Assembly (NCBI GenBank): GCA_016203305.1
Contig: JACQMY010000036.1
Span: 1,886-65,885 of the forward strand
Length of the DNA stretch: 64,000 nt
Source: Candidatus Woesearchaeota archaeon
GTDB taxonomy: Archaea > Nanobdellota > Nanobdellia > Woesearchaeales > ARS49
Direction: 5' to 3'
Positions 5,507 to 63,489 of the stretch are shown one piece after another. The notes beneath the pieces are model-generated. The model was given only the letters and a program-made list of their open reading frames with translations. It ran no database searches and was not told the origin of the DNA. A program made the position numbers and the translations under genes. Position 1 is the stretch's first letter, and each line of letters starts with the position of its first letter.

Positions 5507-6838
5507 TTACAACCCAATACTGGCAAGTAGTTTTTCCTTATCAAACGGTTGCAAGTCCTTGTACTCCTGACCCATGCCTAAGAACAAGATTGGCTTCTTG
5601 GTAACGTAACTCACGCTGATAGCAGCGCCGCCTTTTTCGTCAACATCCGCCTTTGCCAGAATTATGCCGTCAATGCCGATAGCTTCGTCAAACTTCTTAG
5701 CCTGCTCGATGCAGTCATTGCCTGTGATGCTCTCGCCAACAAAGATTTTGACATCTGGCTTTGCGATGCGCACTATCTTTTTCATCTCGTCAACAAGGTT
5801 CACGTTGCTATGCAGTCTTCCAGCAGTGTCAATAAGCACAACGTCTTTCTTTGAGGCTTCAGCGTGTTTTATCGCGTCAAAAGCAACAGCAGCAGGATCA
5901 GCACCATAATCATGACGCACCAATTTCACGCCCAAATTATCAGCATGCAATTGCAATTGGTCAATCGCAGCAGCCCTAAACGTATCAGCAGCAGCAAGCA
6001 CAACGCTCAAACCGTTTGACTGCAAATATTTCGTCAGCTTCGCAATAGAAGTTGTTTTACCGCTACCATTCACGCCAACAAAACAAATCACAAAAGGCTT
6101 CTTCTGCTTGGCACGCTCAAGCAAGTTAATAGACGGAACCTCAAACAAGCTTTCCAAACTATCATGCAAAGATTGAGCGATGGTTTCCTCAACCCTGCCT
6201 CTCGGCACTGGCTTGTCTATCAGGGCAGACTTAAGGTCTCCTTTTATTTTCTCAATTACTTCGACAGCGACGTTGTTTTCCAACAAGGCAAGCTCCAAGT
6301 CCCAGAACAACTCATCAAACTGTTCAACAGAAATCTTCTTCGTAGTAATCTTCTCAGTCAACCTTGAGAAGAAACCCTTTTCTGGCTTTTCTTTGGCAGG
6401 CTCGACCTTTGGCTCCTTTTCAACCTTAGTTTCAGGTTTAGCCATCTCAACTTTTGTCTCAACCTTTGGTCTTTCCGGTTCAACCTTAGGTGACTCAACC
6501 TCATCCTTGCCAACAATAGTCTCTTTCAACCTAGAGAAGAAACCTTTCTTTTCCGGCTCGGGAAGCTCAACCGGCTCTACTTGTGGTGCAGGCTTTGGCT
6601 CAACAGACTTTGGCTCTGGCTTAGTTTCAACCTTAAGTTTAGCTGGCTTTGGAGCTTTCTCAACTTTTGGCTTCTTTACACTCTCAAGCTTCTTCTCAAC
6701 CTTTTTCTCAATCTTCTCCTCAACAGGCTTCTTTTCTTCCGACTTTGGAACTTCAACGACTTCTTCAGGAGCTTCCTCTACCTTCTTCGTCAACTTCGCA
6801 AGCGCTCCTTTCAACTTGTCCTTAAGAAATCCGAACAT
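5507..6838 (-). CDS. ftsY: signal recognition particle receptor FtsY
   Basis: NG-domain motifs: 'GVNGSGKTTSIAKL' P-loop, 'DTAGR', 'ILAKAD'. Lys/Glu/Pro-rich repeat N-terminus. Confidence 0.9.
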   Translation of the reverse strand: MFGFLKDKLKGALAKLTKKVEEAPEEVVEVPKSEEKKPVEEKIEKKVEKKLESVKKPKVEKAPKPAKLKVETKPEPKSVEPKPAPQVEPVELPEPEKKGFFSRLKETIVGKDEVESPKVEPERPKVETKVEMAKPETKVEKEPKVEPAKEKPEKGFFSRLTEKITTKKISVEQFDELFWDLELALLENNVAVEVIEKIKGDLKSALIDKPVPRGRVEETIAQSLHDSLESLFEVPSINLLERAKQKKPFVICFVGVNGSGKTTSIAKLTKYLQSNGLSVVLAAADTFRAAAIDQLQLHADNLGVKLVRHDYGADPAAVAFDAIKHAEASKKDVVLIDTAGRLHSNVNLVDEMKKIVRIAKPDVKIFVGESITGNDCIEQAKKFDEAIGIDGIILAKADVDEKGGAAISVSYVTKKPILFLGMGQEYKDLQPFDKEKLLASIGL

Positions 6839-6839
6839 T

Positions 6840-7259
6840 TTACTTAACCAATGATTTCATCTCATCCTGCAAACCTTCCGCACGACCGGCAAGCTTTTGC
6901 AACTGCAACATCAAGTCTTCCTGCAATTTTCTCAACTCCAAACCTTGACCGTGCACAATCTTCTTGGCATCGCCAACAGATTTTTCAACAACAGCACCAC
7001 CGCCAACATTCAACAAAACCCGCTCTGTGTTCTCAACACGCGCCTTAACAAACAAGCCAGGAGTGAGTGTTACAAATGCATCGCCAGGCTTGGCACGAGT
7101 GAAATCATCCAATGCTTGCTCAACACTATCCATCTCGGAAGCTTGGGCTTCCAGCATTTGTGCTTGTTTTTGAACTTGCTGTACCTGTGTCTGGACCATC
7201 TGAAGCTCCATGTACTTCTGCTGTAACACCTTCATGTCCACCTGCTCTTTATCAGTCAT
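6840..7259 (-). CDS. pfdA: prefoldin alpha subunit
   Basis: 139-aa coiled-coil protein with a central beta-hairpin region. ftsY-pfdA adjacency is a conserved archaeal arrangement. Confidence 0.65.
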   Translation of the reverse strand: MTDKEQVDMKVLQQKYMELQMVQTQVQQVQKQAQMLEAQASEMDSVEQALDDFTRAKPGDAFVTLTPGLFVKARVENTERVLLNVGGGAVVEKSVGDAKKIVHGQGLELRKLQEDLMLQLQKLAGRAEGLQDEMKSLVK

Positions 7260-7403
7260 AACTTCTCCAACAACCTCTCCAAAAAGTGGCCATACTCATG
7301 CTCTGCCTTGAGGAACTTAAGCGATGAACTTGTCGCAACAGTCTTTTCCTCACGCTTAAAATGTTCCAACTCGCGCTTTACCAACTCCTGCAAAACCTTC
7401 ATT

Positions 7404-8156
7404 TCATCCTTGCTGAACATCCTTTCCCTCCACAAGCTTGATGCTGATAGGACCGAAAGCTTGTTCTTGCTCTAACTCAACCTTACGATGATTACTCAAG
7501 TGCAACAACGGAATAAACGTGTAAACCTTGTCCTGCTTTGTGTCGGCAGGCAACAAGTCGGTAAACAATAGTTTGCCCCTCGCGCCAAACAAAGAAGTAA
7601 TCCTGCGGAACAATCCAGTAATAGCGGCAGTAACGTCAAACCTCCGCTCAGGAAGAACAACAGGAGGAGGCATATGGTTAAGCACACGTCTCTGCTTAAC
7701 CTCCAAAGCTTTCTCCAACGCCCTCACCAGGTCGTACACGCTGACCTTACGACGACGAGCCTGCGGCATCCTAGGCAATAATTCCAGGTCCTCTTGCAGG
7801 GCAAGACGTTCTCCTTGTGCCAGTTCTTGTTCTAATGAGTCGTAGAATTCTTCTTGTGTGACATCGTTGCCAGCGAGCAATCGGTCAAACTCGTCCAAAT
7901 CATCGCCAACAAGCTTGTTGCTCTTAATCCGCAACAACATCGCAGCAGCCAAAAGAACCTTGCCACCAACCTTGAGGTCCTGCTCCTTCATCTGCCTCAA
8001 ACGCTCAACATATTTATCAGTAAGCAAAGAAATATCCACATCCCAAGGATTCATCTGCTCAGAACTAATAAGCTCCAAAATAATAGACTTCCAACTAATC
8101 TCGTTCTGCTCAACCAACAACGAAAATAACCGTTCTTGCATGAAGAAAAAAGGCAC
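7404..8156 (-). CDS. scpA: segregation and condensation protein A (kleisin ScpA)
   Basis: N-terminal 'ELISSEQMNPWDVDISLLTDKYVERL' and overall 250-aa layout are typical of ScpA. Confidence 0.7.
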   Translation of the reverse strand: MPFFFMQERLFSLLVEQNEISWKSIILELISSEQMNPWDVDISLLTDKYVERLRQMKEQDLKVGGKVLLAAAMLLRIKSNKLVGDDLDEFDRLLAGNDVTQEEFYDSLEQELAQGERLALQEDLELLPRMPQARRRKVSVYDLVRALEKALEVKQRRVLNHMPPPVVLPERRFDVTAAITGLFRRITSLFGARGKLLFTDLLPADTKQDKVYTFIPLLHLSNHRKVELEQEQAFGPISIKLVEGKDVQQG

Positions 8157-8178
8157 TCGAGGGTTTATAAATGTTTGT

Positions 8179-8334
8179 GGACGAGGATAAAGATTGAAGG
8201 TATAAGGTTGTAGGACGAAGGCAGAAGGTTGTGGGTATTAGGGTGAAAGCGGAAGGACGAAGGATGTAGGTATTATGCGATTGGCTATTGGGTATTAGGA
8301 TGTAGGGATTAGGACGGAGGAGGAAGGCACAAAG
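8179..8334 (+). repeat. tandem array of about 22 degenerate heptads (G-N-N-N-W-A-G)
   Basis: ggacgag gataaag attgaag gtataag gttgtag gacgaag gcagaag gttgtgg gtattag ... with strict 7-bp periodicity. Confidence 0.8.
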
Positions 8335-8366
8335 CTTAAAAACGCCCCATTCGCGGGAATACGTAC

Positions 8367-8439
8367 GGACCCGTAGTTTAGTGGCTATAACGCATCCCTT
8401 ACACGGATGAGGTCGGCAGTTCGAATCTGCCCGGGTCCA
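8367..8439 (+). tRNA. tRNA-Val (anticodon TAC), no intron
   Basis: Manual fold: acceptor GGACCCG/CGGGTCC, anticodon stem CATCC/GGATG, loop CTTACAC, T-arm GGCAG-TTCGAAT-CTGCC. CCA is not encoded. Confidence 0.8.
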
Positions 8440-8493
8440 TTATTCTTCTTCCCCACACAAAAACTTTTAAACGCCACTCAGTAAGACACCACT

Positions 8494-9522
8494 ATGGGAT
8501 GGTTATTTGGGAATGGGGTGAAGGGCAGCTGGCTCAACATACGCTTATCGCGAATATCAAATATTAGCGAAGCGCTCAAAAAACAACTACAAAACTATTG
8601 CATAATAGCAGACATAAAAGAACTTTCAAGCGTCAATCTTCTCAAGCTAGAAAAAGACTGGAACGTGCCAAGACAAGAACTCGCCAAACTCTTCCTACAC
8701 GCGACAAAAGAAAAAATATTCACCATGAACTATGTCATGCACTGCGAAAAATGCCCGGCACAAGGAACGCTGCCAAAACTCTCACAATTCAAAAGCAAAA
8801 TGGTATGCACAGGATGCCAAGCATCACTAACCCCAAAACTCGACCAGAGCGTAGAAGTAGCATTCAGCATACACGAAGACCTGGCAAAAAGCCAAAAAGT
8901 CCAACCAGGACACTATATCCCTGCAATAGAAATAGTAAACACAGAAGAATTCAGAACACTATTTGAAGCAGAAAAACCATTGCCAGGAGAACACCTAGTG
9001 ATAAACCAGCTCACCTTCTTCTTCACAGACCTATCAGGAAGCACGGCAACCTACGAAAAACTCGGAGACGGAAAAGCATACGGCATAGTCAAAGAACACT
9101 TTATACTGTTGTTTGAAATAATCAAAAAACACAACGGCGCCATTGTCAAAACAATAGGAGACGCAGTCATGGCAACATTTCTTTCAAGTGCTGATGCAGT
9201 AACAGCAGCACTAGAAGCCAAACAAGCATTTGTAAAATTCAACAAACGCAAAGACATCAAAGGAGCGGCAAACATCAAAATAGGAATACACACAGGCAAC
9301 TGCCTGGCAGTCACGCTAAACCAACGTTTAGACTACTTTGGAAACACAGTAAACAAAGCAGCACGCATACAAGGAGCAGCAGACAAAGACGAAATATGCA
9401 TCAGCAAAGACACACTACAAGAAGCACAAACAAGAGCTTTATTCAAGGACTTAAAACCAAGACCAAAAAGCATACAGCTAAAAGGAATACTTCAGCCGGT
9501 TGATATTCTAAGCATAAGATAG
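8494..9522 (+). CDS. class III adenylate/guanylate cyclase-domain protein with an N-terminal zinc ribbon
   Basis: 'FFFTDLSGSTATYEKLGD...IKTIGDAVMATF' cyclase-homology motifs. 'HCEKCPAQG...CTGCQ' Cys4 ribbon. Confidence 0.7.
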   Translation: MGWLFGNGVKGSWLNIRLSRISNISEALKKQLQNYCIIADIKELSSVNLLKLEKDWNVPRQELAKLFLHATKEKIFTMNYVMHCEKCPAQGTLPKLSQFKSKMVCTGCQASLTPKLDQSVEVAFSIHEDLAKSQKVQPGHYIPAIEIVNTEEFRTLFEAEKPLPGEHLVINQLTFFFTDLSGSTATYEKLGDGKAYGIVKEHFILLFEIIKKHNGAIVKTIGDAVMATFLSSADAVTAALEAKQAFVKFNKRKDIKGAANIKIGIHTGNCLAVTLNQRLDYFGNTVNKAARIQGAADKDEICISKDTLQEAQTRALFKDLKPRPKSIQLKGILQPVDILSIR

Positions 9523-9562
9523 GACGAAGGTTGTAGGTGTTAGGATGAAGGAAGGAGATAGT
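9521..9562 (+). repeat. heptad (GNNNWAG) tract beginning at the cyclase stop codon
   Basis: ta ggacgaag gttgtag gtgttag gatgaag gaaggag. Confidence 0.6.
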
Positions 9563-9570
9563 TAGTAGTG

Positions 9571-9660
9571 CATCGGAATTGTAATGTAATTCCGAGGTGA
9601 TCGGAAATTGAAAATTTCCGACATGTTGTTTGTAGTACTACGCACTACTGACTACAAACT
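9571..9660 (+). other. cluster of three hairpins
   Basis: cggaatt-gtaatgt-aattccg; cggaaatt-gaa-aatttccg; gtttgtagt-actacgcactactg-actacaaac (9-bp stem). Confidence 0.55.
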
Positions 9661-9734
9661 CGTTCTGTGGGATGAAGGCGGAAGAATGAGACCTACGCGC
9701 AGCATTTAAATAGTAATAATGCAGTTATTGGTTC

Positions 9735-11042
9735 ATGCAAAAGAGATTGCTGATATTACTCATCCTGGTTAGTTGCGCATATTCTGGCATTGACATTCCC
9801 ATCTCAGCCCAACAAGAAAGTTTACACACCACTCGACTCGACAATGGAATGGAAATAACCGTCAAAGAACTGCATTCACTTCCACTAGTAACAATACAAT
9901 TCTGGGTTCACGTCGGATCAAGGAACGAACCTGACGAATACCGCGGCATTGCACACATATTTGAGCACATGTGGTTCAAAGGCACACCAACACAGCCAAC
10001 TGGTAGTTTTGACAGAAAAGTCGAATCACTTGGAGGAGAGCTCAACGCGATGACATCAAACGATTGGACCACTTATTTCGTCACCCTTCCCTCAGACAAG
10101 TTTGATGAAATATTTCCATTAATGGTCGACCTGCTCTTAAACCCCCTTTTTGACAACACTGAAGTTGAAAAAGAAAAACAAGTCATCATAGAAGAGCAAC
10201 GATTCAGCTTTAATGAGCCAGAAAAATACACTGATGACCAGTTTGCGCAAATACTCATTGATGAGCACCCTTATAGGCACCCAGTCATAGGATACAAGAG
10301 CACCATATCCGCAACCACCAGAGAAGAAATCATCAAATTCTACCAAACATGGTATGTTCCAAACAACATGAACATCGTCATAGTAGGAGATGTCAAAAAA
10401 GAGCACGTAATCCCAAAAGTCAAGAGCGCATTCGAGAAACTGGCGCCAAAGGAATTGCCGCGCCTAGAGCTACCAATACAGAAACCAATAACCGTACCAC
10501 GATATAACAGCAGCTTCCGAACTCTTGGTTATACTTATGTTGAATTTGGATTCTTAGCACCAAGCTCGAAAGACAAAGACAGATACGCAATGGATGTTCT
10601 ACAAACAATCCTAGCAGTCGGAGATAGTTCACGACTCGAGCTCACCGTCAAAAAACAAAAAAACCTCATTGTAAGAGGCATAAGCTCGTTTGCCGCATTG
10701 AACGATTTTGGAGTACTCGCCATTCTGGCAGTTGTTGAGCCAGAAAAAGCAACTTCTGCAAAAGCAGAAGTACTATACCAGCTCAACCGTTTCAAAACAG
10801 AATACGTGACCGATGAAGAACTCGAACGAGCAAAAACAATCATCCTGGCAAATAAGTTAAAGTCCAGAGAAGAAATGTTCCAGGTCGCATTTGACATTGG
10901 ACAATCCTGGATTGATGGCGACGTTAACGAACATGAACAATTTGCAAACCGCATAAACTCGGTAACAAAAGAAGATATTAAGAAAGCGGCACAACAGTAC
11001 CTCGTCGCGTATACCATGTATGAATTGAAACCAACACCATGA
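9735..11042 (+). CDS. M16-family (insulinase-like) zinc peptidase, active subunit, secreted
   Basis: Inverted zinc motif 'HIFEHMWF' (HxxEH). Signal peptide. Overlaps the next gene by 4 nt. Confidence 0.8.
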   Translation: MQKRLLILLILVSCAYSGIDIPISAQQESLHTTRLDNGMEITVKELHSLPLVTIQFWVHVGSRNEPDEYRGIAHIFEHMWFKGTPTQPTGSFDRKVESLGGELNAMTSNDWTTYFVTLPSDKFDEIFPLMVDLLLNPLFDNTEVEKEKQVIIEEQRFSFNEPEKYTDDQFAQILIDEHPYRHPVIGYKSTISATTREEIIKFYQTWYVPNNMNIVIVGDVKKEHVIPKVKSAFEKLAPKELPRLELPIQKPITVPRYNSSFRTLGYTYVEFGFLAPSSKDKDRYAMDVLQTILAVGDSSRLELTVKKQKNLIVRGISSFAALNDFGVLAILAVVEPEKATSAKAEVLYQLNRFKTEYVTDEELERAKTIILANKLKSREEMFQVAFDIGQSWIDGDVNEHEQFANRINSVTKEDIKKAAQQYLVAYTMYELKPTP

Positions 11043-12349
11043 AAAAACTCGCGTTATTAATCATATTCCTTGCTGCCTGCAGTAGTGTAACGTTCGAAGA
11101 ACACAACGATGCAGGAAGCAAATATCTGTTAAACAACGGACTGGTCATTCTAATGAAAGAAAACCCTGACACTGGAATGGTCGCAATCGACTTCATGATC
11201 AAAAAAAGCATTGCGGCAGATAGAGAAAAACACGGACTTGGATACCTAACACACCGCTTATTGCTCGCAGGCACAACAACACGAAGCAGAGAGCAAATAC
11301 TCAACGATGTCGAAACAGTTGGAGGAAGTATCACAGCTAAAACATACGCTGAATACAGCGAAATTGTTGCAGAAGTTCCCAGTAACAAGTTCAGCATAGT
11401 ATTAGAAGTTTTACAGGACGTAATCCTCAATCCTGCATTCACACCTGAAGAAATAGAACGAGAAAAGATAGCAATCCTTGGCGAACTCAATGCAAAAAAA
11501 GACCAGCCTGGCCCGGTCACCGAAGACTTGTTTATGAAAACACTATATGAAAACCACCCATACCAACACCCAATTGAAGGGTATGAAGAAACAATAACTT
11601 CGCTCACCCGTGAAGACATAATAAACCATTATAATTCATGGTATGTTCCAAACGCAATAATAATATCAATAGTTGGAAACATCAAAGAAAAACCAACACT
11701 ACACGCAGTCCAACGCATCTTTGGAAAAATGAAGCCAAGCACTTTGCCACCTGAAGGGCTATTTGAACTTCCCCCACGCACTTCCTCCAAAAAAAGCACC
11801 CACAACATGCCAATAGAAAGTTTCTATATCCAATATGGACACCAACTAGTCCCGGCAACACACCCTGATTTCATAAAACTTCGCATGGCAAATGCAGTAC
11901 TAGGCTCAGGCGCTTCCAGCAGGCTATTCTACGAACTCCGCGAAAAAAGAGCACTCGCCTACCGCGTCTTCTCAATTGCACCAAGCGTAAGAACAATAGG
12001 CTTCCTAAAAGTAACCATGATTTCACGCCCCGCAGTACTAAACGAAAGCCTAGTAGGCATACAAGAACAACTAACTAGACTGCAAACAGAACCAGTAACA
12101 GAAGAAGAACTAAACATAGTCAAACAAAAAGTCAAAGGATTCTTCTTTTTAGACCACCAGAAAACAACAGACCAGGCAAACTATCTTGGCTTGTACGAAA
12201 TGCAAGGACTCGGATACCACTACGACAAAGAATACCCTGACAAGATTGGTGCGGTTAGTTCTGAAGAAGTCCAAACAGTCGCGAATCAATACTTTGTTAA
12301 TCCTGTGATTGCTGTTCTGGGACCGTTTGAAGGCGGCGGGATAGAATAG
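11039..12349 (+). CDS. M16-family peptidase-like protein, HxxEH-less partner subunit, lipoprotein
   Basis: Paralogous length and position. Lacks the HxxEH motif. 'LLIIFLAACSS' lipobox-like signal. Confidence 0.7.
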   Translation: MKKLALLIIFLAACSSVTFEEHNDAGSKYLLNNGLVILMKENPDTGMVAIDFMIKKSIAADREKHGLGYLTHRLLLAGTTTRSREQILNDVETVGGSITAKTYAEYSEIVAEVPSNKFSIVLEVLQDVILNPAFTPEEIEREKIAILGELNAKKDQPGPVTEDLFMKTLYENHPYQHPIEGYEETITSLTREDIINHYNSWYVPNAIIISIVGNIKEKPTLHAVQRIFGKMKPSTLPPEGLFELPPRTSSKKSTHNMPIESFYIQYGHQLVPATHPDFIKLRMANAVLGSGASSRLFYELREKRALAYRVFSIAPSVRTIGFLKVTMISRPAVLNESLVGIQEQLTRLQTEPVTEEELNIVKQKVKGFFFLDHQKTTDQANYLGLYEMQGLGYHYDKEYPDKIGAVSSEEVQTVANQYFVNPVIAVLGPFEGGGIE

Positions 12350-12467
12350 TTCTGATGCACCGTCCGCACGGGGCAAGAAAGGTGCAGTTCTTTATGTCAA
12401 AAACCGCAGGTCATCGCTCGCTCAAGACCAGTGGCTTGGATCATATCCAGTGGTTTTTGATCACACT

Positions 12468-12532
12468 CGGAAATCCACCCAATTGTGGTTTGCGAACGAG
12501 CAAACCACCAGTCTAAGACTGGTGGATTTCCG
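12468..12532. other. multi-hairpin structured element
   Basis: 12-bp perfect outer stem cggaaatccacc/ggtggatttccg enclosing tggtttgc-gaacga-gcaaacca and ccagtc-taa-gactgg. The alternative 9-bp pairing ccaccagtc/gactggtgg is mutually exclusive with it. Confidence 0.5.
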
Positions 12533-12556
12533 ATGTTTAAATGGTGATTTTGGTGG

Positions 12557-13192
12557 TTATCTGGTTAAAACTGCTTGTGCTTGCATATCCCAAAATAGCC
12601 AGAACCGTATTTCTTCTGCTTCAAGTGGAGCATTGCTGGCTGAAAACTTTTGCATTAGCTCCTTAAATTTTAATTGGGAGACGTTGTACGCATCCTCTGC
12701 GGTTTTTCCATTAAGAAGTGCAAGTGCGACTTGATTTGACGCTTCTTTAAACACATTGGCAAGTTCGTCATCTTTTGGTCTGCATTCTTTGTTCTTGTTT
12801 GTGAGAAATGAGAATGGTTCTGTGTAGCCTATATACGCTTTTGTTCCTTTTTTGATCGCGGAAGCTCCAAGTTTTGATGCAGAGTCGCAAGAAAGAGCAT
12901 AGACAACTTTGTCTTTTAGCACTTCTTCATTATCACCACATTTGACTAACGGTTCATCTTTGTGACCTTTAACTGTTTCAGCATCACCATGCCCATTGAG
13001 AAAAACGAATGAAGGATTTTGTTTTGTGAGGAACTTTTCAAATTCTGTTCGGTTTGCTTTATCCGCTGCCAAATCTTTCATTAAGATTCCTTTTTTCTTT
13101 GCTTCCGTAATAACCTCTTTGTTCCATTCAGATAGATATTTTGTTATCTTGTCGTGTTCCGGACGTGTGATTATTGCGTTTTGAGAAGTCAT
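12557..13192 (-). CDS. hypothetical protein; candidate clan-CD (caspase-like) His-Cys protease fold
   Basis: Hydrophobic strand + 'GHG' (H68) and hydrophobic strand + 'SCDS' (C102), spaced 34 residues apart as in caspase/gingipain pairs. Low-confidence inference. Confidence 0.4.
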   Translation of the reverse strand: MTSQNAIITRPEHDKITKYLSEWNKEVITEAKKKGILMKDLAADKANRTEFEKFLTKQNPSFVFLNGHGDAETVKGHKDEPLVKCGDNEEVLKDKVVYALSCDSASKLGASAIKKGTKAYIGYTEPFSFLTNKNKECRPKDDELANVFKEASNQVALALLNGKTAEDAYNVSQLKFKELMQKFSASNAPLEAEEIRFWLFWDMQAQAVLTR

Positions 13193-13194
13193 TT

Positions 13195-13398
13195 TTACAA
13201 TCCTTGTTTGAACGTCCTTAAGTATTTCATTTGTACTTCGATGAATTTCTTTCCAAAATCATCTCCTTTCTTAACGTGATTCATGAGTTCTTCTTTTCCT
13301 AAAGTGCCAAGATTTCCCAAGTTGATTTGAATGTACTCAGGCATGGTCTCCAAACGTGCAAGGATGAGTTTTTTGATGTCAGCTTCGTATTCGGTCAT
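13195..13398 (-). CDS. small hypothetical protein (67 aa)
   Basis: ORF track; overlaps the neighbouring ORFs by 4 nt, giving a three-gene operon. Confidence 0.4.
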   Translation of the reverse strand: MTEYEADIKKLILARLETMPEYIQINLGNLGTLGKEELMNHVKKGDDFGKKFIEVQMKYLRTFKQGL

Positions 13399-13586
13399 AT
13401 GAGCTCCATTTTTTCGAGTTTTTTTAATATGTCTTTGCCGAGAGGAGTGTCATTATGGATTTCGATGTATGCGCTGTCCCAAGTATACGGCTTGTCAATG
13501 TCGCCCACTTTGACAACTACAATAACTTCATTTCGTACATTTTCTGGAAGTTTGGCATAAACCTTTATAAAGCGGTCTTTTGACAT
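13395..13586 (-). CDS. small hypothetical protein (63 aa), first gene of the three-gene operon
   Basis: ORF track; TTTATAAA box about 25 nt upstream on its own strand. Confidence 0.4.
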   Translation of the reverse strand: MSKDRFIKVYAKLPENVRNEVIVVVKVGDIDKPYTWDSAYIEIHNDTPLGKDILKKLEKMELI

Positions 13587-13849
13587 CAGGTGTTGCCTTC
13601 CTTATGCGTGTTTATAAAGATGCCGTACGCTAAATATATACCTTTCTGTTGTCCAATTTGCATGCGTTCTCTGGTTGTGCTATATGCAGCAAAAAATGCG
13701 CATCAGTTATAAAAAATGTTGCGTGACTTGGACCAGAGTTGCTATGCGCCGTCCGGGCGGCTTATGTAAGGGACAAAAGAGGCGGTAGATTTATTTCAGA
13801 AACTATTATATGAGTTTGAATAGTGGTTTGAGTATTAATATTTTGTGCA

Positions 13850-15001
13850 CTATTTGAGTTTGATGAATCCATCTTTTTCTTCGTATTTCATGCCTGCATT
13901 TTTCATTTCCTTCTTTAAGAGCTTCAGATTTTGCGCCTGTACTGCTTTGCCTTTTTCTTCCCACATCGTGTGGTCTTTACCGAGTTTCTTGAGAACTTGC
14001 GCTTTCAAAGAGTAATAGTCAAAATGGGGAATGTTTCGTTTTTCTGCATATTTGATGCACTCATCAATGGTTTTGAGTGCGCTTTCGGGATTTCCTTCAT
14101 TCAGTTCAACTTGTGCTTTGTAAAGATGCGCGTGCGGATTCTCAGGGTTCTCCTGCAATAACCGGCGAATGAGCTGTTTCGCTTCCTCTGTTCTTTTCAG
14201 AACAAGAAGGCATTCTACTTTCATCCCTTTTACCATTTCTTTTATTTGTGGTTCGAGCGATTCCTCTTTGACGGCTCTGAGTAGGTAGAGTGCTTCTTCA
14301 AATCTCTCTTTGAGCATGAACTCATTGACTTTTTCCAATGTGTCATTTAATTGAGCCAAGGGATGGCAAGGAGGGATTTCTTCTATCCAGAATTTTTTCA
14401 TGAAATTGTCAGTCCGCTTTTTATCAATTCTTCTTGCGATGTCGATGAGCGATTGGTATTCCTTCCCCAACCAATAATGGAGTTGGGCTTTCATGATGAC
14501 CGGATCAAACCAATCAGGAGCCATTTTCAAGACCACGTCCACTTTTTTCAAAGCGGCATCATATTCTTCCTTGAGAATGTGCTGATGTACGATTGAGAGA
14601 AGGAACTCTGGATTTTCCGGATTGATATCCATTAATCTTGCGGAGTATTCTTGCGCCTCTTTGGACTGGCCAAGAGCAACATGCGCTTCAATGATGAGTG
14701 ATAACGCTTCTTCATCCTCAGGGATGATATTGAGGACTTTCTGCAATAACGGGATCGCTTTGGAGTACTTTCTTTTATCCATCAATGAGAGTGCATCTTC
14801 TATCAGATCGTCAGGTTCTGCGTAATCTTCCTCAAATTCAAACTCCCACGTTGTACTGTGTTTCTTATTATACCAACCATTGAATTCTTCTAATTGTTTT
14901 CTCTCTTCGGCATCATTTTGGGGCAGGGGTTTGTCTCTGAAGTACTCTTTCCATGCTTGTCTGAGCTGCCTTTGTTCCGCATTAAAATCTGATTTGGTCA
15001 T
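13850..15001 (-). CDS. TPR-repeat protein
   Basis: Multiple 34-aa helical repeats with the W-LG-Y/A-F-A-P tetratricopeptide pattern. Confidence 0.65.
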   Translation of the reverse strand: MTKSDFNAEQRQLRQAWKEYFRDKPLPQNDAEERKQLEEFNGWYNKKHSTTWEFEFEEDYAEPDDLIEDALSLMDKRKYSKAIPLLQKVLNIIPEDEEALSLIIEAHVALGQSKEAQEYSARLMDINPENPEFLLSIVHQHILKEEYDAALKKVDVVLKMAPDWFDPVIMKAQLHYWLGKEYQSLIDIARRIDKKRTDNFMKKFWIEEIPPCHPLAQLNDTLEKVNEFMLKERFEEALYLLRAVKEESLEPQIKEMVKGMKVECLLVLKRTEEAKQLIRRLLQENPENPHAHLYKAQVELNEGNPESALKTIDECIKYAEKRNIPHFDYYSLKAQVLKKLGKDHTMWEEKGKAVQAQNLKLLKKEMKNAGMKYEEKDGFIKLK

Positions 15002-15003
15002 TT

Positions 15004-15507
15004 TTATTCCTGTAGAACAGTTTTCGTTTTCTCAATAAAAGCCTTTGTTTGTTCGTATAATGCCCTAATTTTCCCTGCTTCAAAGCGAGTTTCTGTCCCG
15101 TACTGGAAGCGTTCCCGTAATTCAACAATATCGGCTGTTTCAAGCTTGTCTCGTTGGTCTGTTGCGAATATGCTATGCAGTTCTTCTTTGGTTAGACCAA
15201 TTTTACCTTGTTCAATGAGAACTTCTATTGTGGCGAACGTGCATTCTTGGTTCCTGCTCTCATAGCCAAATTTGCAGAGAATTGCGAGTAAACAATGATA
15301 CTGAGCGTAGAATGAAGCGTGAACGGCCCAATCAGTATATCCGCCTTTGATCAGGTGTTGCATTGCGGCAAGATTATGCTCTGCTTTCTTGACGTGGTCA
15401 CTCGCAGTATCTGTGTCTGGCTTTACTTCTCGAAGTCCGCGATGCTTTCTACCTTCTTTCTCAGCTTTCTTCAAGCACCAGTTGAGCTTGTTTTCCGCGT
15501 GCGTCAT
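15004..15507 (-). CDS. HEPN-domain protein (toxin-like)
   Basis: 'HASFYAQYHCLLAIL' resembles the HEPN conserved helix. Overlaps the upstream MNT gene by 4 nt. Confidence 0.65.
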   Translation of the reverse strand: MTHAENKLNWCLKKAEKEGRKHRGLREVKPDTDTASDHVKKAEHNLAAMQHLIKGGYTDWAVHASFYAQYHCLLAILCKFGYESRNQECTFATIEVLIEQGKIGLTKEELHSIFATDQRDKLETADIVELRERFQYGTETRFEAGKIRALYEQTKAFIEKTKTVLQE

Positions 15508-16091
15508 GCTGCCTCTTTCACCGCATTGATGATAATGTCATGTCCCCAGAGGACTTTGCCTGTTTTAAGGATTTCTAAAATGACTTTGTCAGGCTTCTTA
15601 AAGTTTTTGACGAGGTCATCGAACGTTTGCACGACGTCTTGAATCGGCTTGGTCTTTAATGCCCGCAATTCGTCAAGCGCTTTTTTATATGCCTCGTACT
15701 TTTTGTCTTCCAAGATGAACAAGACATCAATATCTCCTGCTTTCTCGCCTTTTTCAAGAACCGACCCAAAGAGCGCTGCTGCCTTTGCAAATGGGCGCAA
15801 TCTTTCCAAGTCTTTTGCTTGGGCTTTGGCATAGGGAAGCGCGATCTCTTCAACGAGCGCGAGGTTTGCAGCTATTCTTGCAACCTCTGAGTCGAAATTG
15901 AGCTGAAAGAAGACTGCATTTCCCAGTTTTTCGAATTTCAAAATGCCTTGTTTTTCCAATCGATTCAGAAGCTTATGCATCCCTTTTGGAGTGATTCCTA
16001 CCTTCTTTGCAAGCTGGTTTATGCTGTACTTTTCGTGAAAATGCCTCACAAGGAAGTTCAGCGTTTTCAATTCGTTTTGCGTCAAAGACAT
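15504..16091 (-). CDS. minimal nucleotidyltransferase (MNT) with an N-terminal wHTH
   Basis: 'LFGSVLEKGEKAGDIDVLFIL' (GS...DxD) nucleotidyltransferase motif. N-terminal HTH 'INQLAKKVGITPKGMHKLLNRLEKQG'. Confidence 0.7.
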   Translation of the reverse strand: MSLTQNELKTLNFLVRHFHEKYSINQLAKKVGITPKGMHKLLNRLEKQGILKFEKLGNAVFFQLNFDSEVARIAANLALVEEIALPYAKAQAKDLERLRPFAKAAALFGSVLEKGEKAGDIDVLFILEDKKYEAYKKALDELRALKTKPIQDVVQTFDDLVKNFKKPDKVILEILKTGKVLWGHDIIINAVKEAA

Positions 16092-16343
16092 ATGAACCCA
16101 AGGTATATGATTGAATACTTGAAGTATATAAAGCTTTCTAGGGGCAAATCATGTACCTTAAGTACATAAATATGTACTGGGCGTGAATAGCCTTCGTTCA
16201 CCCGAGCGAACAACTGTTCACCAAAGGACACTACAGACGGGACCAATCGATACTATTCGTAGCATAACGCAGCGCATAAGAACTCCCAGTTCCCATATGA
16301 GAACCAAAGGTTCCTGCCAAGCTCGCAAAGTGCGAGCAAGATT

Positions 16344-17201
16344 TTACTGAAAGATATACTTGTGTTTTCCTTCCAAGGAGAGTTTGAAGTTATACTTGTT
16401 CAACATCAAAATTAAATCGACTTCTTCAGAAAAAATATCGCGATTCTCTCTTTGCAGGAGATCGGCAAGAAAGCAGAACGTGAGATATGCGATAAAACGA
16501 TCTAACAATCGCGCATGCACCCTTGCTTTTTCCACACTCTCTATCGGCCGTCTGTAATAAAGTGTTCGCATCTTCTCAACAGATCTTTTGTCCTTCAAGT
16601 CAATCTTGATTAGGTGTTCAATTATGTCAAGATCTTCAGCTGCTCTCCGTCGATTTATGACCGAATGGAATGCCGTTCGGGATTGTTCGATAAGATGATA
16701 GATAAAACTGTACTGGTAGTAATTTGGAATTAATTCTTCGGATATTTGCAAGCTTTTGCTCAGAATCTTAGGCAGGTAATTGTGCAAAAGAACGCTAAAT
16801 GTTCTTGTTCTCATAAAATCTGTCAGCCGTCCATGTTTAAACGCTAAATTTGACAAACGAATGAATCCCGGCTCGTCATCTTTCAACTTCCAGGTATATG
16901 TATCAAGAAAGCCCTTCACAGTGAACACATCTTGGCGTTCTAAATAACCCAAATCAGCAAGCGCTTGTAAATGCTCACGAACCTCCTTTGTAGAACGAAT
17001 GTGAAACGCATCACGAACGTGAAAGTGAACATCCGCTGTTGGAACGTGCTTGAATGGATGCTCTCTAGCAAGATAAATCAAAATGTTCAACTTGGTTTCC
17101 CAAGGACCATAACCTTTGCCCCGCTCAAGCTTCTCAAACAACGGCTTTTTTGGCCTCTTCTTGCCGATTACTCTCTTACCTGCCCATTTGTGCTGTCGCA
17201 A
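16344..17201 (-). CDS. hypothetical protein with a probable wHTH
   Basis: ORF track; 'LQALADLGYLER' wHTH-like segment. Stem-loop gctcgca-aag-tgcgagc lies just downstream (16318-16334). Confidence 0.4.
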   Translation of the reverse strand: MRQHKWAGKRVIGKKRPKKPLFEKLERGKGYGPWETKLNILIYLAREHPFKHVPTADVHFHVRDAFHIRSTKEVREHLQALADLGYLERQDVFTVKGFLDTYTWKLKDDEPGFIRLSNLAFKHGRLTDFMRTRTFSVLLHNYLPKILSKSLQISEELIPNYYQYSFIYHLIEQSRTAFHSVINRRRAAEDLDIIEHLIKIDLKDKRSVEKMRTLYYRRPIESVEKARVHARLLDRFIAYLTFCFLADLLQRENRDIFSEEVDLILMLNKYNFKLSLEGKHKYIFQ

Positions 17202-17470
17202 ATTCCCGCCCCTTCCTAGTTCAAGAAAGACTGGTTCTTTTAAGCTTTCCCTTCATAAACACGAGGGGTTTCTCCACAAAACAAACCCCTTGTTCATTCT
17301 GTGAGAAAATAACAAAATACTCCGGACGCCACATAAGTATTATTGGATAAGGAATTAGAAAAACACCTGCCCGAATGGTACATTCTCCTACGCAGAGCTA
17401 TCTACGAACAACCCCAAAGCGAACAGGCACGTCCAGAAGCAGCAGCAGACAATCTTGACCAAACAAAACA

Positions 17471-17848
17471 GTGCGAGGTGGAAACATGACAAGCGGAAAA
17501 ACCATATGGGATTATGTGCCAGGAGAAATGGCAAAAAGGTTTGAGGCAGTTGCTAAGAAGGTGAGCTACAAAAAAAGCACTGATCTGGACGACAAGCCGG
17601 TTTTTCTCGCCAGCGTCGATTTGGAAAAAATCGACATGGACGACTTTGCGTATTATTGGGCGTTCACCCTGGGCAAAGACTTCGAGAACCCGCCACATAT
17701 GAACTTCTGGAGACACCAACTCACGCCAGAAGAGCTCAGAGCGTGGGATAAAGCATGGGAAAAAGCGGTTCTGCAAAGAAAACAGGAAATTGAGCGTATT
17801 CAGCATCTTTTGATGGAGTTCAACAAGAAGGCAACAGCTAAACAATGA
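17471..17848 (+). CDS. hypothetical protein
   Basis: ORF track; 4-nt overlap with the next gene. Confidence 0.4.
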   Translation: MRGGNMTSGKTIWDYVPGEMAKRFEAVAKKVSYKKSTDLDDKPVFLASVDLEKIDMDDFAYYWAFTLGKDFENPPHMNFWRHQLTPEELRAWDKAWEKAVLQRKQEIERIQHLLMEFNKKATAKQ

Positions 17849-18618
17849 CTGAACTTGCGCCTCCAGTCAAGGGCGAGGATCACAAGGAGTATTATCGGAA
17901 GCTTAAAGCGTGGCAGTTGCAAGACCGCGAAAGACGCTTCTACTTGCAATACTCCTTGCAAAACCCCCTAAGCTCAAAACGCCCTGAAGTAGCGAACGCA
18001 AAGGAGCGAGAGATTTGGCGAACTATGTTTTTCCAAAGATTCGGGAAAAACCGGCTGATGGAGCTCATCCAAGAATACGTTATTCCTTGCAGTGAGGTAG
18101 AACCAGAATTGCAGCACGTTCTCACCGATGACCTGCTCATCAGCTGCATCGGAAAATGGCTCAGAAGATACAACAAAGTACGCGCAACAGAACTCGGCGG
18201 CAACCAATTCAAGTATTATTTGGTTAAAGAGAATTGGAAACGAGAAAGCGCAAACCATTTGATATGGAAATTCGAACTTAAAAGACTTTTTAACTGCCAA
18301 ATCGAGCAACACGATAACGATACTCAAGGACGTTTCGACGCGGTTTTGAAGAAAAACGGCAAAACGATCATCATTGAGATTGTGTGCAAACGACAAAGCG
18401 TCAATCAGGCCTTGATCGATAAACTGCTCATCAAAGCGCCAGAAATAGAACGCAAAGGATATTTCGTTGTGCTCGCCCCGCAAAGAATCCACAAATACCT
18501 CAAAGGCGTTGAAGACGGACTACCTGGAACCATACACCTAACTGACTCAAAAAATATTTTATCACTACTCGATACCTTAGTTAACGGCCGGGAAGTTCAG
18601 AACGCCGAATCGGCGTGA
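17845..18618 (+). CDS. hypothetical protein with a candidate PD-(D/E)xK nuclease motif
   Basis: 'GRFDAVL...KTIIIEIVCK' gives a D ... E-x-K arrangement on beta strands. Confidence 0.4.
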   Translation: MTELAPPVKGEDHKEYYRKLKAWQLQDRERRFYLQYSLQNPLSSKRPEVANAKEREIWRTMFFQRFGKNRLMELIQEYVIPCSEVEPELQHVLTDDLLISCIGKWLRRYNKVRATELGGNQFKYYLVKENWKRESANHLIWKFELKRLFNCQIEQHDNDTQGRFDAVLKKNGKTIIIEIVCKRQSVNQALIDKLLIKAPEIERKGYFVVLAPQRIHKYLKGVEDGLPGTIHLTDSKNILSLLDTLVNGREVQNAESA

Positions 18619-18748
18619 CACCTGTTGAAACTCACTATTGCTTGGACGCTTGGAAAGAACAGCTAACCAAACCAGCCCACAAGGCGAATATTTTCTACAT
18701 ATCAACGTCGAATGCTAATCAAAACCAAGAAGTCAGGGGTCGTCGTTG

Positions 18749-20359
18749 CTAGATTTTCAAAGGTTTGTTTTCAGCATAGTTAATTCCAGATTCTCTGTAA
18801 AACTCTCTAGTAGTTTCGGGGTCGCCATTAAGTTTTTTGAATGATTCTCTTACATGGGCAATTTTTTCTCTTATATCTTTATCAGGAATTTCGCCGAAAC
18901 TATTTGGATTATCATTGTGTCCGTTAATAAGGGGTTCTTGGTAAGTGTGAACAACTACTCTTTTTCTTCCATTAAATTCTACTTTTGGAATGAAGTATGT
19001 TACTATTTGAGTTCGCGTATCAATTTCTTTATCGGCAGTAAAATGGGGGTAAGCAGTTAAGTACAGATTCCCCTGTTCGTGAAGAATGTTATAAGCCTGC
19101 CATCGTTCATGATCAGAATGATGCTCATGTTGATCTAAAAATCCGATTACTTTTGTAACCGTTTCAATCGGAACTGTTAAGTCTGAATGTGATGGAGAGT
19201 GCATATCAACAATCATTTTGTAAGGAATTACACCTAAACCATAAGCAAGTTTTGATATTCTTCTCAATTTTTCAATGCTCCATGCCATGTCATCTCTTTG
19301 AAAATTGATTCCTTCCTGTAAGGGCATTTGAAGATGGATTGTAATTCCGGCGCTTTCAAGTTTATCTACTGCCATTCTTGCTTCTGGTGCTGATAGTTGA
19401 TAGTCGTCTGTAACATGAGCATTGATGTAGACTTGCTTACCTGTTTCACTTTCAAAATCTTGTAACATTTGCACAAATTCATGATCTATTCTATACCACA
19501 TTCCCTGAAAGACAGAAGACGTGCACATCCTAACAACTTTTACGTGCTCTGCTTGTGTATATTGCTCAAGAATCTTTTTAAGAGCAGAATTTGAAAATAA
19601 GGTTGGCTCTCCGCCACTTATGACAATAGTGTCCACTTCTTGATTTTGATTGAGCCATTGCGTAAGGAGTTCTGCTTGTCTTTCTGCGCGTTCTTCTTGA
19701 AGATTAAGTTGTTTTTTAATTTGTGCATATTCAGGATAAACTTCAGCAAGGGCAGATAATGCGGTTCTTACCATTGAGCCCTTGTAACAACCATCACACC
19801 CAATATGGCAGGCCTCAGTAATATTTGCTAAAACTGCGTAGCTAAATTTTCTTGTCGCCAGATAAGTTTCATTTTCATTGCCATCAATAGCAACAACTCT
19901 ATCCATTCCTCTGAAAATTCCATAAGGATCCATACTGTGCCTCCAATTTCCAGAGAATTTGTCTGAGCGAGATGGAATGTATTTTTTTAAGGTGGTATCG
20001 CCCATTACTGCATTATACGGTAAAATACTCATTACTCTTCCAACTTTAACTGCCGCTTCTGCTGCTTCTACATATTGTTCTAAACCGAGAAGTCTTAGGT
20101 GCTCTGATTTTGTCGCTCTAAAGAGTAATTGAAATCTTTGCGAAGCCCAAAGTTGTTCGGGAGATAACCGTAGTTGTTGGCTAACAACATCAAGAATAGA
20201 GTCTAATGTTTGGTTTTCTTTGCTTGTTCCTAAGTATCTTTCTCTTGCTTGATTGAAGAAGTCTCTAGCAGAATGTCCTCCTAGTTCTTGCTCTAAGTTT
20301 CCTAAATTCAATTCTGATTCTACCATTTTCCATCGTGGAGTAGTGTTATGTTTATTCAT
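18749..20359 (-). CDS. radical SAM protein of the KamA family (lysine 2,3-aminomutase-like)
   Basis: 'CHIGCDGC' (CxxxCxxC). 'IVISGGEPTL' (KamA 'SGGDPL'-like). 'LESAGITIHLQMPLQEGINF' resembles the KamA AG(I/V)...NQ.VLL.GVND block. Has a long N-terminal extension. Confidence 0.6.
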   Translation of the reverse strand: MNKHNTTPRWKMVESELNLGNLEQELGGHSARDFFNQARERYLGTSKENQTLDSILDVVSQQLRLSPEQLWASQRFQLLFRATKSEHLRLLGLEQYVEAAEAAVKVGRVMSILPYNAVMGDTTLKKYIPSRSDKFSGNWRHSMDPYGIFRGMDRVVAIDGNENETYLATRKFSYAVLANITEACHIGCDGCYKGSMVRTALSALAEVYPEYAQIKKQLNLQEERAERQAELLTQWLNQNQEVDTIVISGGEPTLFSNSALKKILEQYTQAEHVKVVRMCTSSVFQGMWYRIDHEFVQMLQDFESETGKQVYINAHVTDDYQLSAPEARMAVDKLESAGITIHLQMPLQEGINFQRDDMAWSIEKLRRISKLAYGLGVIPYKMIVDMHSPSHSDLTVPIETVTKVIGFLDQHEHHSDHERWQAYNILHEQGNLYLTAYPHFTADKEIDTRTQIVTYFIPKVEFNGRKRVVVHTYQEPLINGHNDNPNSFGEIPDKDIREKIAHVRESFKKLNGDPETTREFYRESGINYAENKPLKI

Positions 20360-20433
20360 ATTTAAAGAGTTGTAGTCTTAATTGAGATGACAAAAGAGAA
20401 AAGTTTAAAAGGAATAGTTAATCCAATATTAGT

Positions 20434-21171
20434 ATGGCTGAACTTGAGGTGCTTGAGGAATTAGGGCTTTCCGAAGCAGAGGCAAAAGTCTATCTCGCTT
20501 TGTTAGAAACAGGATCCACGCTTGCAGGCACGATTATCAAAAAGACGGGCTTGCACCGAGGCACCACTTATCAAATCCTCCAAAGACTGAAAGAAAAGGG
20601 GCTTGTGTCATCGGTAATAAAAGGTAAAAAGCAATACTTTGAGCCAGTAAGTCCTGAAAGGCTCATGGACATCCTAAAGGAAAAACAGGAAAGACTGCAA
20701 GAATTCCTCCCAATTCTAAAAGCGCGCACAGAATTCAGTAAAGACAAACAAGACGTCACCGTGTATTCTGGGATCAGAGGTATTCGATCTGTGCTTGATA
20801 AAATGCTTGAAGAACTCGGTCCGCATGGGGAATATTATGATTTTGGAGTTTCTGGACTATTTCGCAACGTTATAGGTCCGTATTGGGATCTTTGGCAGAA
20901 ACGCAAAAGAAAAAACAACATAAAATCTCACGTTATTTTCAATGAAGAACTCAAAAGAACAAATCCAAAACTCTTGCAAGAGTACTATGGCAAAGCTCGC
21001 TTTCACCCAAAAGAATACGCAAGCATGACCGATACTATGATCTACAAAGATACGGTGATTATGTTCATTTGGACTGCTAAGCCTCCGATAGCAGTCATCA
21101 TTAAAAACAAAGAGAATGCGGAAAGCTACAAAAACCAATTCAGACTGATGTGGAGGTTTGCCAAACCCTAA
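20434..21171 (+). CDS. TrmB-family transcriptional regulator
   Basis: N-terminal 'LGLSEAEAKVYLALLETGSTLAGTI' wHTH typical of TrmB. Confidence 0.65.
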   Translation: MAELEVLEELGLSEAEAKVYLALLETGSTLAGTIIKKTGLHRGTTYQILQRLKEKGLVSSVIKGKKQYFEPVSPERLMDILKEKQERLQEFLPILKARTEFSKDKQDVTVYSGIRGIRSVLDKMLEELGPHGEYYDFGVSGLFRNVIGPYWDLWQKRKRKNNIKSHVIFNEELKRTNPKLLQEYYGKARFHPKEYASMTDTMIYKDTVIMFIWTAKPPIAVIIKNKENAESYKNQFRLMWRFAKP

Positions 21172-21280
21172 GACTCCCCCTGCTTAATTGCACAGTCTGA
21201 AAAGAGCCGTTTCTTGTGCGGTTTACGTGAGAGGATTAGGGTTCATTAATTATATAAACACGTATGTGTTATGGTAGAAT

Positions 21281-21637
21281 ATGGACAAGCTAACAATCGT
21301 AGGAAGAACAAATTGGGAGGGTGGTTTCTATGTCAAATTAAAATCTGAAGAAAAAGTTATGAAAATCATCAAGAAAATTGTTGAAGATCTCGACTCTGAC
21401 TATTTTGTGGATAATCAAGTAATACCAAAAGCATTTTCAAATTATTCTAAATGGAAAGACCAATGGATTCCAATAGTACAAAAGAATTTAAGAATTGATA
21501 TAATTTGTGGAGACAAAATGATCCACCTGATAGTGCACCGATATCCAAGCATTGAATTTGTGAACACTATTCTTGACAAGTACTGCAATTGGGCACAAGT
21601 AAGATACAAAAAGGGACTTGGTCAAGCAAGCAAATGA
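21281..21637 (+). CDS. hypothetical protein
   Basis: ORF track only. Confidence 0.35.
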   Translation: MDKLTIVGRTNWEGGFYVKLKSEEKVMKIIKKIVEDLDSDYFVDNQVIPKAFSNYSKWKDQWIPIVQKNLRIDIICGDKMIHLIVHRYPSIEFVNTILDKYCNWAQVRYKKGLGQASK

Positions 21638-21678
21638 TTTGAACATCCTTTTCGAACCGTCCGTTTGAGCAGAATTTG

Positions 21679-22473: not shown

Positions 22474-22556
22474 GTTACTTAAACTTTTTGCTAGCTCTCG
22501 TGGATGAGAGTCTTTGAGTGAAAAGCTTAATAAGCAGCTTATTCTAAGGGCAAATT

Positions 22557-25395: not shown

Positions 25396-25454
25396 ATGTA
25401 GAGAAGTGCCCTTTACTTAAATACTTTTCGTTATATCTTAACCCTTAGGTTAAA

Positions 25455-63485: not shown

Positions 63486-63489
63486 TTTC

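Follow-up and report, generated by a model that had tools for sequence, protein, structure and literature searches.

In animals, both regulated cell death and immunity hinge on caspase-like proteases, and recent work assigns an equivalent role in bacteria to CHAT proteins including Craspase, SAVED-CHAT and proteases that activate gasdermins. The enzymes of the underlying peptidase clan CD are restrained by fused domains or by zymogen processing. Among the systems that are closest to the one described here are the CHAT proteases of prokaryotic immunity, represented by SAVED-CHAT of type III CRISPR loci (PDB 8tl0; bioRxiv 10.1101/2023.06.23.546230) and TPR-CHAT, the protease of Craspase (PDB 7y84), which act in the cytoplasm, have a catalytic dyad whose His-Gly and Cys each terminate one of two consecutive strands and are encoded in operons together with their targets or regulators. 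With respect to genome organization, tandem accretion at tRNA genes has been described in bacteria for elements that are integrative and either conjugative (ICEs) or mobilizable (IMEs), where a decayed cis-mobilizable element (CIME) lies beyond a newer element (PMC5704250). Here, we have analysed a stretch of 64,000 nucleotides from a Candidatus Woesearchaeota archaeon (contig JACQMY010000036.1, positions 1,886 to 65,885), in the following termed the window, in which 13.1 kb (12355-25465) between a gene coding for an M16 peptidase and a gene coding for tRNA-Gly(GCC) probably constitute a tandem array of insertions at the 3' end of this tRNA gene. The unit of the array that is distal to the tRNA would be an integrase-less remnant, whose single operon encodes two small proteins, A and B, and a putative minimal clan-CD protease, C.

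The proposed array is delimited by short direct repeats. The sequence ATGCGCCGTCCG is found at 25454-25465, where it comprises the terminal 11 nucleotides of the 3' end of the tRNA-Gly(GCC) gene (25455-25538, minus strand, 84 nucleotides) and one flanking base, and as an exact copy at 13744-13755, which marks the border between a 1.4-kb block and an 11.7-kb element. A third, outer copy, ATGCACCGTCCG, which differs from ATGCGCCGTCCG in one base, is located at 12355-12366, starting 5 bp past the stop codon at 12349 of the second of two M16 peptidase genes (9735-12349, plus strand). All three copies share the same orientation and, since the sequences that flank them do not align, the repeat is exactly 12 bp long. 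When allowing for one mismatch, these three sites in the window compare to 0.09 expected, with none of 100 shuffles reaching three, and the chance of such a match within the interval of about 50 nucleotides behind the M16 stop, as scaled from the expectation for the window, is about 7e-5. If two mismatches are tolerated, the six sites detected compare to 2.4 expected and the signal sinks to background. The copy at 12355 also forms the 5' arm of a weak hairpin (12356-12386), whose folding is not significant (z-score -1.8). Alternatively, the same sequence could derive from the 5' end of a plus-strand tRNA gene that was formerly present, but we judge this less likely and prefer the direct-repeat reading because the former accounts for only 7-8 of the 12 positions, compared to 11 of 12 for the latter.

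The unit adjoining the tRNA (13756-25453) contains a gene for a tyrosine recombinase (24136-25395, minus strand; PF00589, E 6e-21; XerA/XerD-like) at a distance of 59 nucleotides from the tRNA 3' end. No recombinase was identified inside 12367-13743 among the open reading frames (ORFs) or by Pfam, and tRNA-derived direct repeats are present at both ends of this block, as is characteristic of a CIME-type remnant, which by definition is devoid of an integrase. The mobility of the block itself is unproven. A preliminary description of this DNA had proposed that 12355-12366 matches the tRNA-Gly end at 11 of 12 positions in the same orientation, and that it represents a second, older copy which brackets 12355-13755 in tandem with the larger element. 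The coordinates and the match are borne out, the excess of sites argues for a genuine second copy and the bounded tandem block is supported, with additional evidence from the genomic neighbourhood in relatives described below. Conversely, the term 'older', which rests on the single mismatch and the missing integrase, is unproven, as the relative age is not provable from a repeat of 12 bp with a one-base difference in its outer copy.

As an independent test of the attachment-site reading, we refer to two metagenome contigs, L024 and L025, that were found in searches with the second M16 protein, with which their homologues share 68% and 64% identity, respectively. Both contigs are collinear with the window in the upstream region (window 5507-12349) and display the gene order tRNA-Val (8367-8439, plus strand, in the window), M16, M16, tRNA-Gly, with the tRNA-Gly(GCC) gene residing on the plus strand 45 bp past the stop of the orthologous M16 gene (as compared in 11309-11424 of L024 and 11312-11427 of L025). 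In L025, the collinearity extends to the downstream side, where a surface protein of 1,035 amino acids and the next gene match 48052-62670 and 63385-63780 of the window. Neither contig contains homologues of A, B or C within 10 kb, and among the ORFs listed downstream of the tRNA, none resembles an integrase. Both thus display an unoccupied site, in which the M16 stop is followed after 45 bp by tRNA-Gly on the other strand, with neither trio nor integrase, whereas in the window the same two genes are now separated by about 13.1 kb, consisting of 11.7 kb including the integrase and 1.4 kb. Because the relatives carry tRNA-Gly at this position, the copy at 12355 would mark the former junction between M16 and tRNA-Gly. 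The 5' flank of the tRNA gene contains a TATA-like box (TTTTTAAA or TTTTTATA) at equal distance in the window and in the relatives, which shows that the tRNA-Gly of the window is the orthologous gene and that gene and promoter were inverted as one. This inversion may have affected the tRNA gene alone, prior to the integrations, or the complete array after they had taken place, and we prefer neither of the two scenarios. The tRNA-Gly of the window also contains an insert of 13 nucleotides (TTGCAAAGCAATG) directly after position 37, the canonical archaeal intron site, which accounts for its length of 84 nucleotides; the orthologues in L024 and L025 span 71 nucleotides and do not contain an intron. 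Downstream of tRNA-Gly in L024, the region 11577-11695 carries a long insert between tRNA-like ends (GGGCCCGTAGCTTAG...TTCAAATCTCCTCGGGCCCACC), and it may encode an intron-containing tRNA, although it is not called by ARAGORN.

In the reading that we favour, a tRNA-Gly gene that originally was the neighbour of the M16 peptidase gene, an arrangement still present in the relatives, and that at some stage became inverted with its promoter in this lineage would have served as target for successive insertions. The proximal unit would be an integrative element of 11.7 kb that encodes a tyrosine integrase and is bounded by exact 12-bp repeats, and the distal unit, with its one-mismatch outer repeat, the decayed, CIME-like remnant of an earlier integration. 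The locus resembles the CIME arrays in that the tRNA 3' end recurs in three direct copies, that the integrase unit lies next to the tRNA and that the distal unit has no integrase and a degenerate outer site. It differs in its occurrence in a DPANN archaeon, in a core of just 12 bp and in the inversion of the tRNA relative to that of relatives. It offers a clean case, from archaea, of elements accreted in tandem at a tRNA gene, one of them being a remnant that has no integrase. The position of tRNA-Gly beside M16 in relatives and the tRNA inversion are new here, as is the finding that the cargo of the small islet is a fixed, widespread and unannotated trio of genes.

This cargo consists of gene A (13395-13586, 63 amino acids), gene B (13195-13398, 67 amino acids) and gene C (12557-13192, 211 amino acids), all on the minus strand, with the stop codon of A overlapping the start of B by four nucleotides and a gap of two nucleotides between B and C. 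The ORF coordinates confirm the three-gene operon that had been proposed initially. A TATA-like sequence, TTTATAAA, at 13611-13618, 24 nucleotides before the start codon of A, presumably belongs to the promoter of the trio. The DNA similarity to the closest relatives of the trio (79% in L008 and 77% in L009) is confined to 12558-13650, corresponding to promoter and three genes, with unrelated sequences on either side; the conserved region upstream of A (13587-13650) ends where the alignment to L008 ceases. Together, these features suggest a self-contained operon with its own promoter. In the gap between gene C and the convergent M16 gene, nested inverted repeats of very high predicted stability at 12467-12533 form a perfect 13-bp outer stem that encloses hairpins of 9 bp and 5 bp in a predicted three-way-junction fold, with a minimum free energy of -52.8 kcal/mol and z-scores of -4.5 on the plus and -4.3 on the minus strand. 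This structure is possibly a terminator or a small RNA; no Rfam match was obtained in 12000-14000 and no second copy of the structure is present in the window.

The product of gene C is 100% identical to HY489_05660, a hypothetical protein encoded on a 67-kb contig of a Candidatus Woesearchaeota metagenome-assembled genome, which places the window in a DPANN archaeon. Inspection of its sequence revealed no signal peptide, membrane segment, prodomain, sensor or repeat domain, as expected for a cytoplasmic protein. An AlphaFold (AF2) model that is based on an alignment of 34 sequences was predicted with high confidence (pLDDT 96.3, pTM 0.92). It shows the succession strand, helix, strand, helix, strand (62-66) followed by GHG, β-hairpin, strand (96-100) followed by SC, helix, strand, three helices and a terminal strand. 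The order of strands and helices corresponds to the layout of caspases, strand 3 leading into GHG and strand 4 into SC. Thus G67-H68-G69 and S101-C102 are placed at the ends of strands in the manner of the His-Gly and Cys of clan CD. The respective codons are located at 12989-12991 for His 68, which is part of an NGHG motif, and at 12887-12889 for Cys 102, in the motifs YALSC and SCDS. Among the 34 homologues, which are 36-83% identical, Asn 66, Gly 67, His 68, Gly 69, Gly 76, Tyr 98 and Cys 102 are invariant, and Thr 9, Arg 10 and Pro 11 are nearly so. Arg 10, which follows strand 1, and Asp 142, which is likewise invariant, are candidate residues of the S1 pocket. In a Foldseek search of the PDB, the best match of the model was SAVED-CHAT (8tl0, E 3e-5), followed by caspase-4 (E 1.3e-4), caspase-11 (E 2.7e-4), the gingipain RgpB (E 2.4e-3, TM-score 0.63), TPR-CHAT (7y84, E 2.7e-3) and two C11 proteases (E 3.6e-3 and 7.0e-3). 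The Foldseek probability is 1.00 for all of these except for the C11 proteases (0.96-0.99), and the query-normalized TM-scores of the clan-CD matches range from 0.38 to 0.63. Two unrelated chains, the transaminase PhnW and a glutamate receptor (E about 3e-3, TM-score 0.32-0.35), also appear among the matches, and receiver domains that cover about half of the protein are found further down the list. In a search of viral models (BFVD), the named matches are a caspase-domain protein and clostripains. The hydrophobic strands preceding GHG and SCDS, which the preliminary description had compared with a clan-CD catalytic pair, are therefore both present, and its proposal is upheld by the predicted fold and by the strict conservation of both residues. 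We conclude from the model that C defines a new minimal family with clan-CD fold and an intact candidate dyad consisting of His 68 and Cys 102, from which we infer protease activity. While the enzyme clan is already known, the family is new within it.

The comparison with characterized clan-CD enzymes illustrates how C differs from each of them. CHAT proteases, whose dyad position and cytoplasmic location correspond to those of the candidate residues and of the protein in C, have a size of 470-650 amino acids, contain fused SAVED or TPR sensor domains and reside in CRISPR loci, whereas C comprises 211 residues with no extra domain, does not match PF12770, is not accompanied by CRISPR or signalling genes and has two proteins of about 60 amino acids as partners. 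With caspases, metacaspases and orthocaspases (MEROPS C14), C shares the fold, the order of strands and helices and a related signature around the catalytic His (SHG-x4-I-x-G compared to GHG-x4-V-x-G in C), but it does not match PF00656, the spacing between His and Cys is 34 residues instead of 42 as in caspase-3, neither a p20/p10 linker nor a processing site is evident and its C-terminal half is helical and unique. RgpB, a member of gingipain R (C25), has the highest query-normalized TM-score to C and clostripain-like C11 enzymes match as well, although these proteins are secreted, carry prodomains, span 350-430 amino acids or more and share about 10% identity with C. The best local profile alignment with caspase-3 in hhalign places His 68 on the catalytic His 121, but it is not significant (E 0.17, probability below 1%). 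Thus, while the matched or named enzymes of the clan carry large fused sensor domains or prodomains, the C family consists of a bare core of 211 residues with two small partners, and this compact trio could reveal the way in which regulation is achieved for a caspase fold of minimal size.

No domain is recognized in either A or B. The model of B, which was predicted with moderate confidence (pLDDT 84), consists of a helix, a β-hairpin and two further helices, and the layout of A, as judged from its sequence pattern, appears similar. A and B might be paralogues, although they share only a D-x-L-G-K helix-cap motif and their profile comparison is weak, with an hhalign probability of 12%. A structural neighbour of B, prefoldin beta (E 0.44), was rejected as evidence, and the sole PHROG trace of B is a weak match to a primase (E 0.034). 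In a Parcubacteria population (L032, 1950-3186, and L033, 995-2231), a clear homologue of A is found alone, 26 nucleotides after the gene of a serine protease of 341 amino acids (PF01972, SDH_protease). Behind it lie a hairpin and genes unrelated to the trio, and both B and C are absent. This occurrence hints at A being a protease-associated module in its own right.

The distribution of the trio was characterized by screening loci with hidden Markov models (HMMs) that were built from few members. In 21 of 22 distinct loci, the genes follow the order A-B-C, with junctions that either overlap or are 1-5 nucleotides apart. Their hosts are Woesearchaeota, Iainarchaeota, Aenigmarchaeota and unclassified archaea on one side and Falkowbacteria, Berkelbacteria and other Patescibacteria on the other. 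The flanking genes differ at every locus, even between trios that are 83-88% identical, and they include genes for ribosomal proteins, GrpE-DnaK-DnaJ, DnaX, HisRS, ScpB, an IS200-type transposase and toxin-antitoxin (TA) systems, with TA or defence genes such as PIN, DUF3368/UPF0175, Fic, BrnT/CopG and AbiEii being frequently found nearby. An exhaustive profile search with C retrieved 2,552 clusters at 50% identity for E<=1e-3, 1,396 for E<=1e-10 and 422 for E<=1e-30. Among the 150 clusters listed, most members are standalone proteins of 205-220 amino acids, with few fragments of 166-200 or proteins of up to 246 amino acids. The A family counts 1,491 clusters at 90% identity, mostly with a length of 59-63 and in few cases of up to 92 amino acids, and nearly all of its named members originate from DPANN archaea or from bacteria of the candidate phyla radiation (CPR), with one being labelled just as 'Euryarchaeota archaeon'. 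In a neighbour-joining tree of 24 C proteins, the archaeal sequences form a clade apart from the CPR-containing sequences, and a recent transfer of C between the two domains, which was considered, is unsupported by this separation. The literature searches did not turn up an earlier account of this kind of family from CPR or DPANN, and the one publication checked among those that name CPR together with caspase turned out to be unrelated. The family, with its approximately 1,400 clusters, is thus unannotated and, as far as seen, confined to DPANN and CPR, lineages whose biology is almost entirely inferred from genomes. In the Aenigmarchaeota locus (L031, 3350-4024), one of the 21 loci, an in-frame stop splits C into parts of 155 and 57 amino acids, with A and B being intact, which could reflect a pseudogene, a sequencing error or read-through. 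In the Falkowbacteria contigs L027 (3022-5339) and L028 (1-2318), the trio is followed by the gene of an IS200-type Y1 transposase, and both contigs are 99% identical up to 53 nucleotides beyond this gene, from where they diverge completely.

Since C lacks a prodomain, sensor or repeat domain and since it is always encoded together with A and B in a translationally coupled unit that is conserved in both domains, we infer, as the most economical model, that the three proteins would form a stable complex, in which C acts as a minimal cytoplasmic cysteine protease with the fold of caspases, gingipains and CHAT proteins, and in which A and B would provide in trans the control that other enzymes of the clan obtain from fused domains or zymogen cleavage. 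In such a complex, A and B might hold the protease off or direct it to its targets, an assignment that we make tentatively, whereas we are rather sceptical of the alternative that both are substrates of C. The trio could function as an accessory switch in addiction, defence or stress, as favoured by its variable location, its occasional decay and its place between attachment (att) sites, or a lineage-specific physiological protease, as favoured by the size and conservation of the family, the domain-wise tree and the absence from collections of mobile elements. In a more far-reaching scenario, which we regard as doubtful, it would be an unrecognized proteolytic system of the host-dependent, ultra-small cells of DPANN and CPR, built around the smallest known caspase-type core with control in trans by two proteins of about 60 amino acids; it would serve as a switch in cell fate, defence or addiction and could be close to an ancestral, domain-free form of caspases and CHAT proteases.

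Several observations weigh against our explanation of the locus, some of which concern the array and others its cargo. As regards the array, the repeat is short and its outer copy deviates in one base, the tRNA-Gly of the window is found on the strand opposite to that in L024 and L025, which requires the assumption of at least one additional rearrangement, an inversion, and neither an excision product nor an empty site from the same population was found, the exact M16 protein being absent from the records. In other genomes, neither the att 12-mer nor a nearby tRNA gene, for which 1 kb around the trio was scanned, accompanies it, the nearest being a tRNA-Gln about 590 bp upstream of A in L006. 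Searches of mobile elements, which the preliminary description had suggested, did not reveal a copy of the trio in IMG/VR, in the phages of INPHARED or in the plasmids of PLSDB. The shortness of the repeat, a hairpin arm that is followed by a T-rich run (12356-12395) and the chromosomal location of the trio without att in all other genomes examined would be compatible with a match at 12355 that is coincidental or part of the stem of the M16 terminator, and with a trio that is an ordinary resident of the chromosome, beside which the integrase element has landed. We consider this very improbable in light of the low number of expected sites, the placement of the copy within few bases of the tRNA-Gly position in relatives, the insignificance of the hairpin and the absence of the trio from the locus in L024 and L025. 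It is less improbable, although still unlikely, that the entire 13.1 kb arrived pre-accreted from another host, or that 13744 was used later as a secondary site, in which case the 1.4-kb block would not be an older, separate integration at this place. The similar GC content of block and element is consistent with such a composite origin, the outer copy with its single deviating base says little on age and the transfer of whole tandems of CIME and element is documented in bacteria (PMC5704250). However, an integrase unit with perfect repeats that adjoins the tRNA is the usual outcome of a later integration into a regenerated site. As the exact inner 12-mer is far too improbable by chance, two units bounded by att copies exist, however they arrived.

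As regards the cargo, C is not matched by the sequence models of the clan-CD families. The window protein does not match Pfam at E<=0.1, the clan-CD models of Pfam, including CHAT (PF12770) and the peptidase families C14, C25, C11 and C13, do not detect any of the 34 members at E<=1 apart from a trace of Peptidase_C25 in a single member (E 0.14) that we regard as noise, searches of NCBIfam, PADLOC and PHROG with C or its 34 homologues were equally negative, and a sequence-profile search of the PDB returned only noise and no peptidase. The profile searches that had been suggested for the two small proteins did not yield a match for A or B in Pfam, NCBIfam or PDB sequence profiles, the model of B has no significant structural match, and the lone A gene in Parcubacteria is an exception to the order A-B-C. 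Legumain and GPI8 can act as transpeptidase or ligase. C could likewise have the caspase fold and yet not be an endopeptidase but a transpeptidase or ligase, a hydrolase of a bond other than a peptide bond or a binding protein that has retained the dyad for a different chemistry, and its silence towards sequence models, its moderate TM-scores (0.45-0.63), its size of 211 compared to 230-650 amino acids in the matched PDB chains and the unique three-helix part at its C-terminus (143-205) would fit such a role. Given the invariant His-Gly and Cys at the canonical strand ends and the fact that the significant structural matches, apart from PhnW and the glutamate receptor, are peptidases, we find this quite unlikely and retain the assignment as putative endopeptidase. 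A larger, though less than even, chance is granted to the trio being a module that serves the housekeeping or physiology of DPANN and CPR cells, for example in the maturation or turnover of a specific protein, whose place in the tRNA-Gly array is incidental and which is neither selfish nor a cargo for addiction or defence. In this respect, the family is of great size, well conserved and of strict gene order in both domains, the clean split between archaeal and bacterial clades is more readily reconciled with vertical inheritance over long times than with transfer at high frequency, the neighbours are often housekeeping genes such as those of ribosomal proteins, DnaK/DnaJ, DnaX and HisRS, and there is neither a match in PADLOC nor a trustworthy one in PHROG. 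PADLOC, Pfam and NCBIfam thus do not relate the trio to any known defence or TA system. Conversely, the location differs in each genome even for closely similar trios, relatives do not have the trio at the syntenic position, decayed versions exist with the split C in L031 and the orphaned A in L032, and in the window it is flanked by att copies, with TA and defence genes as frequent neighbours elsewhere, all of which would be in line with an accessory cargo.

The remainder of the array and its surroundings contain additional features. The cargo of the 11.7-kb element (ORFs at 13850-23420, both strands) includes a pair consisting of a HEPN protein and a winged helix-turn-helix nucleotidyltransferase (15004-16091), a radical-SAM protein (18749-20359), a second nucleotidyltransferase (21679-22473), a TPR protein, a TrmB-type regulator and several ORFs that do not match Pfam. 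Beyond the tRNA-Gly, a stretch of about 22 kb (25.8-48 kb), which is absent from L025 and which includes ORFs that by eye resemble CheA, CheC and CheD, precedes the conserved gene of a giant surface protein. The latter is a single ORF of about 4,870 codons on the minus strand (48052-62670), in which numerous internal repeats find their match in the surface protein of L025, a protein rich in Thr and Pro.

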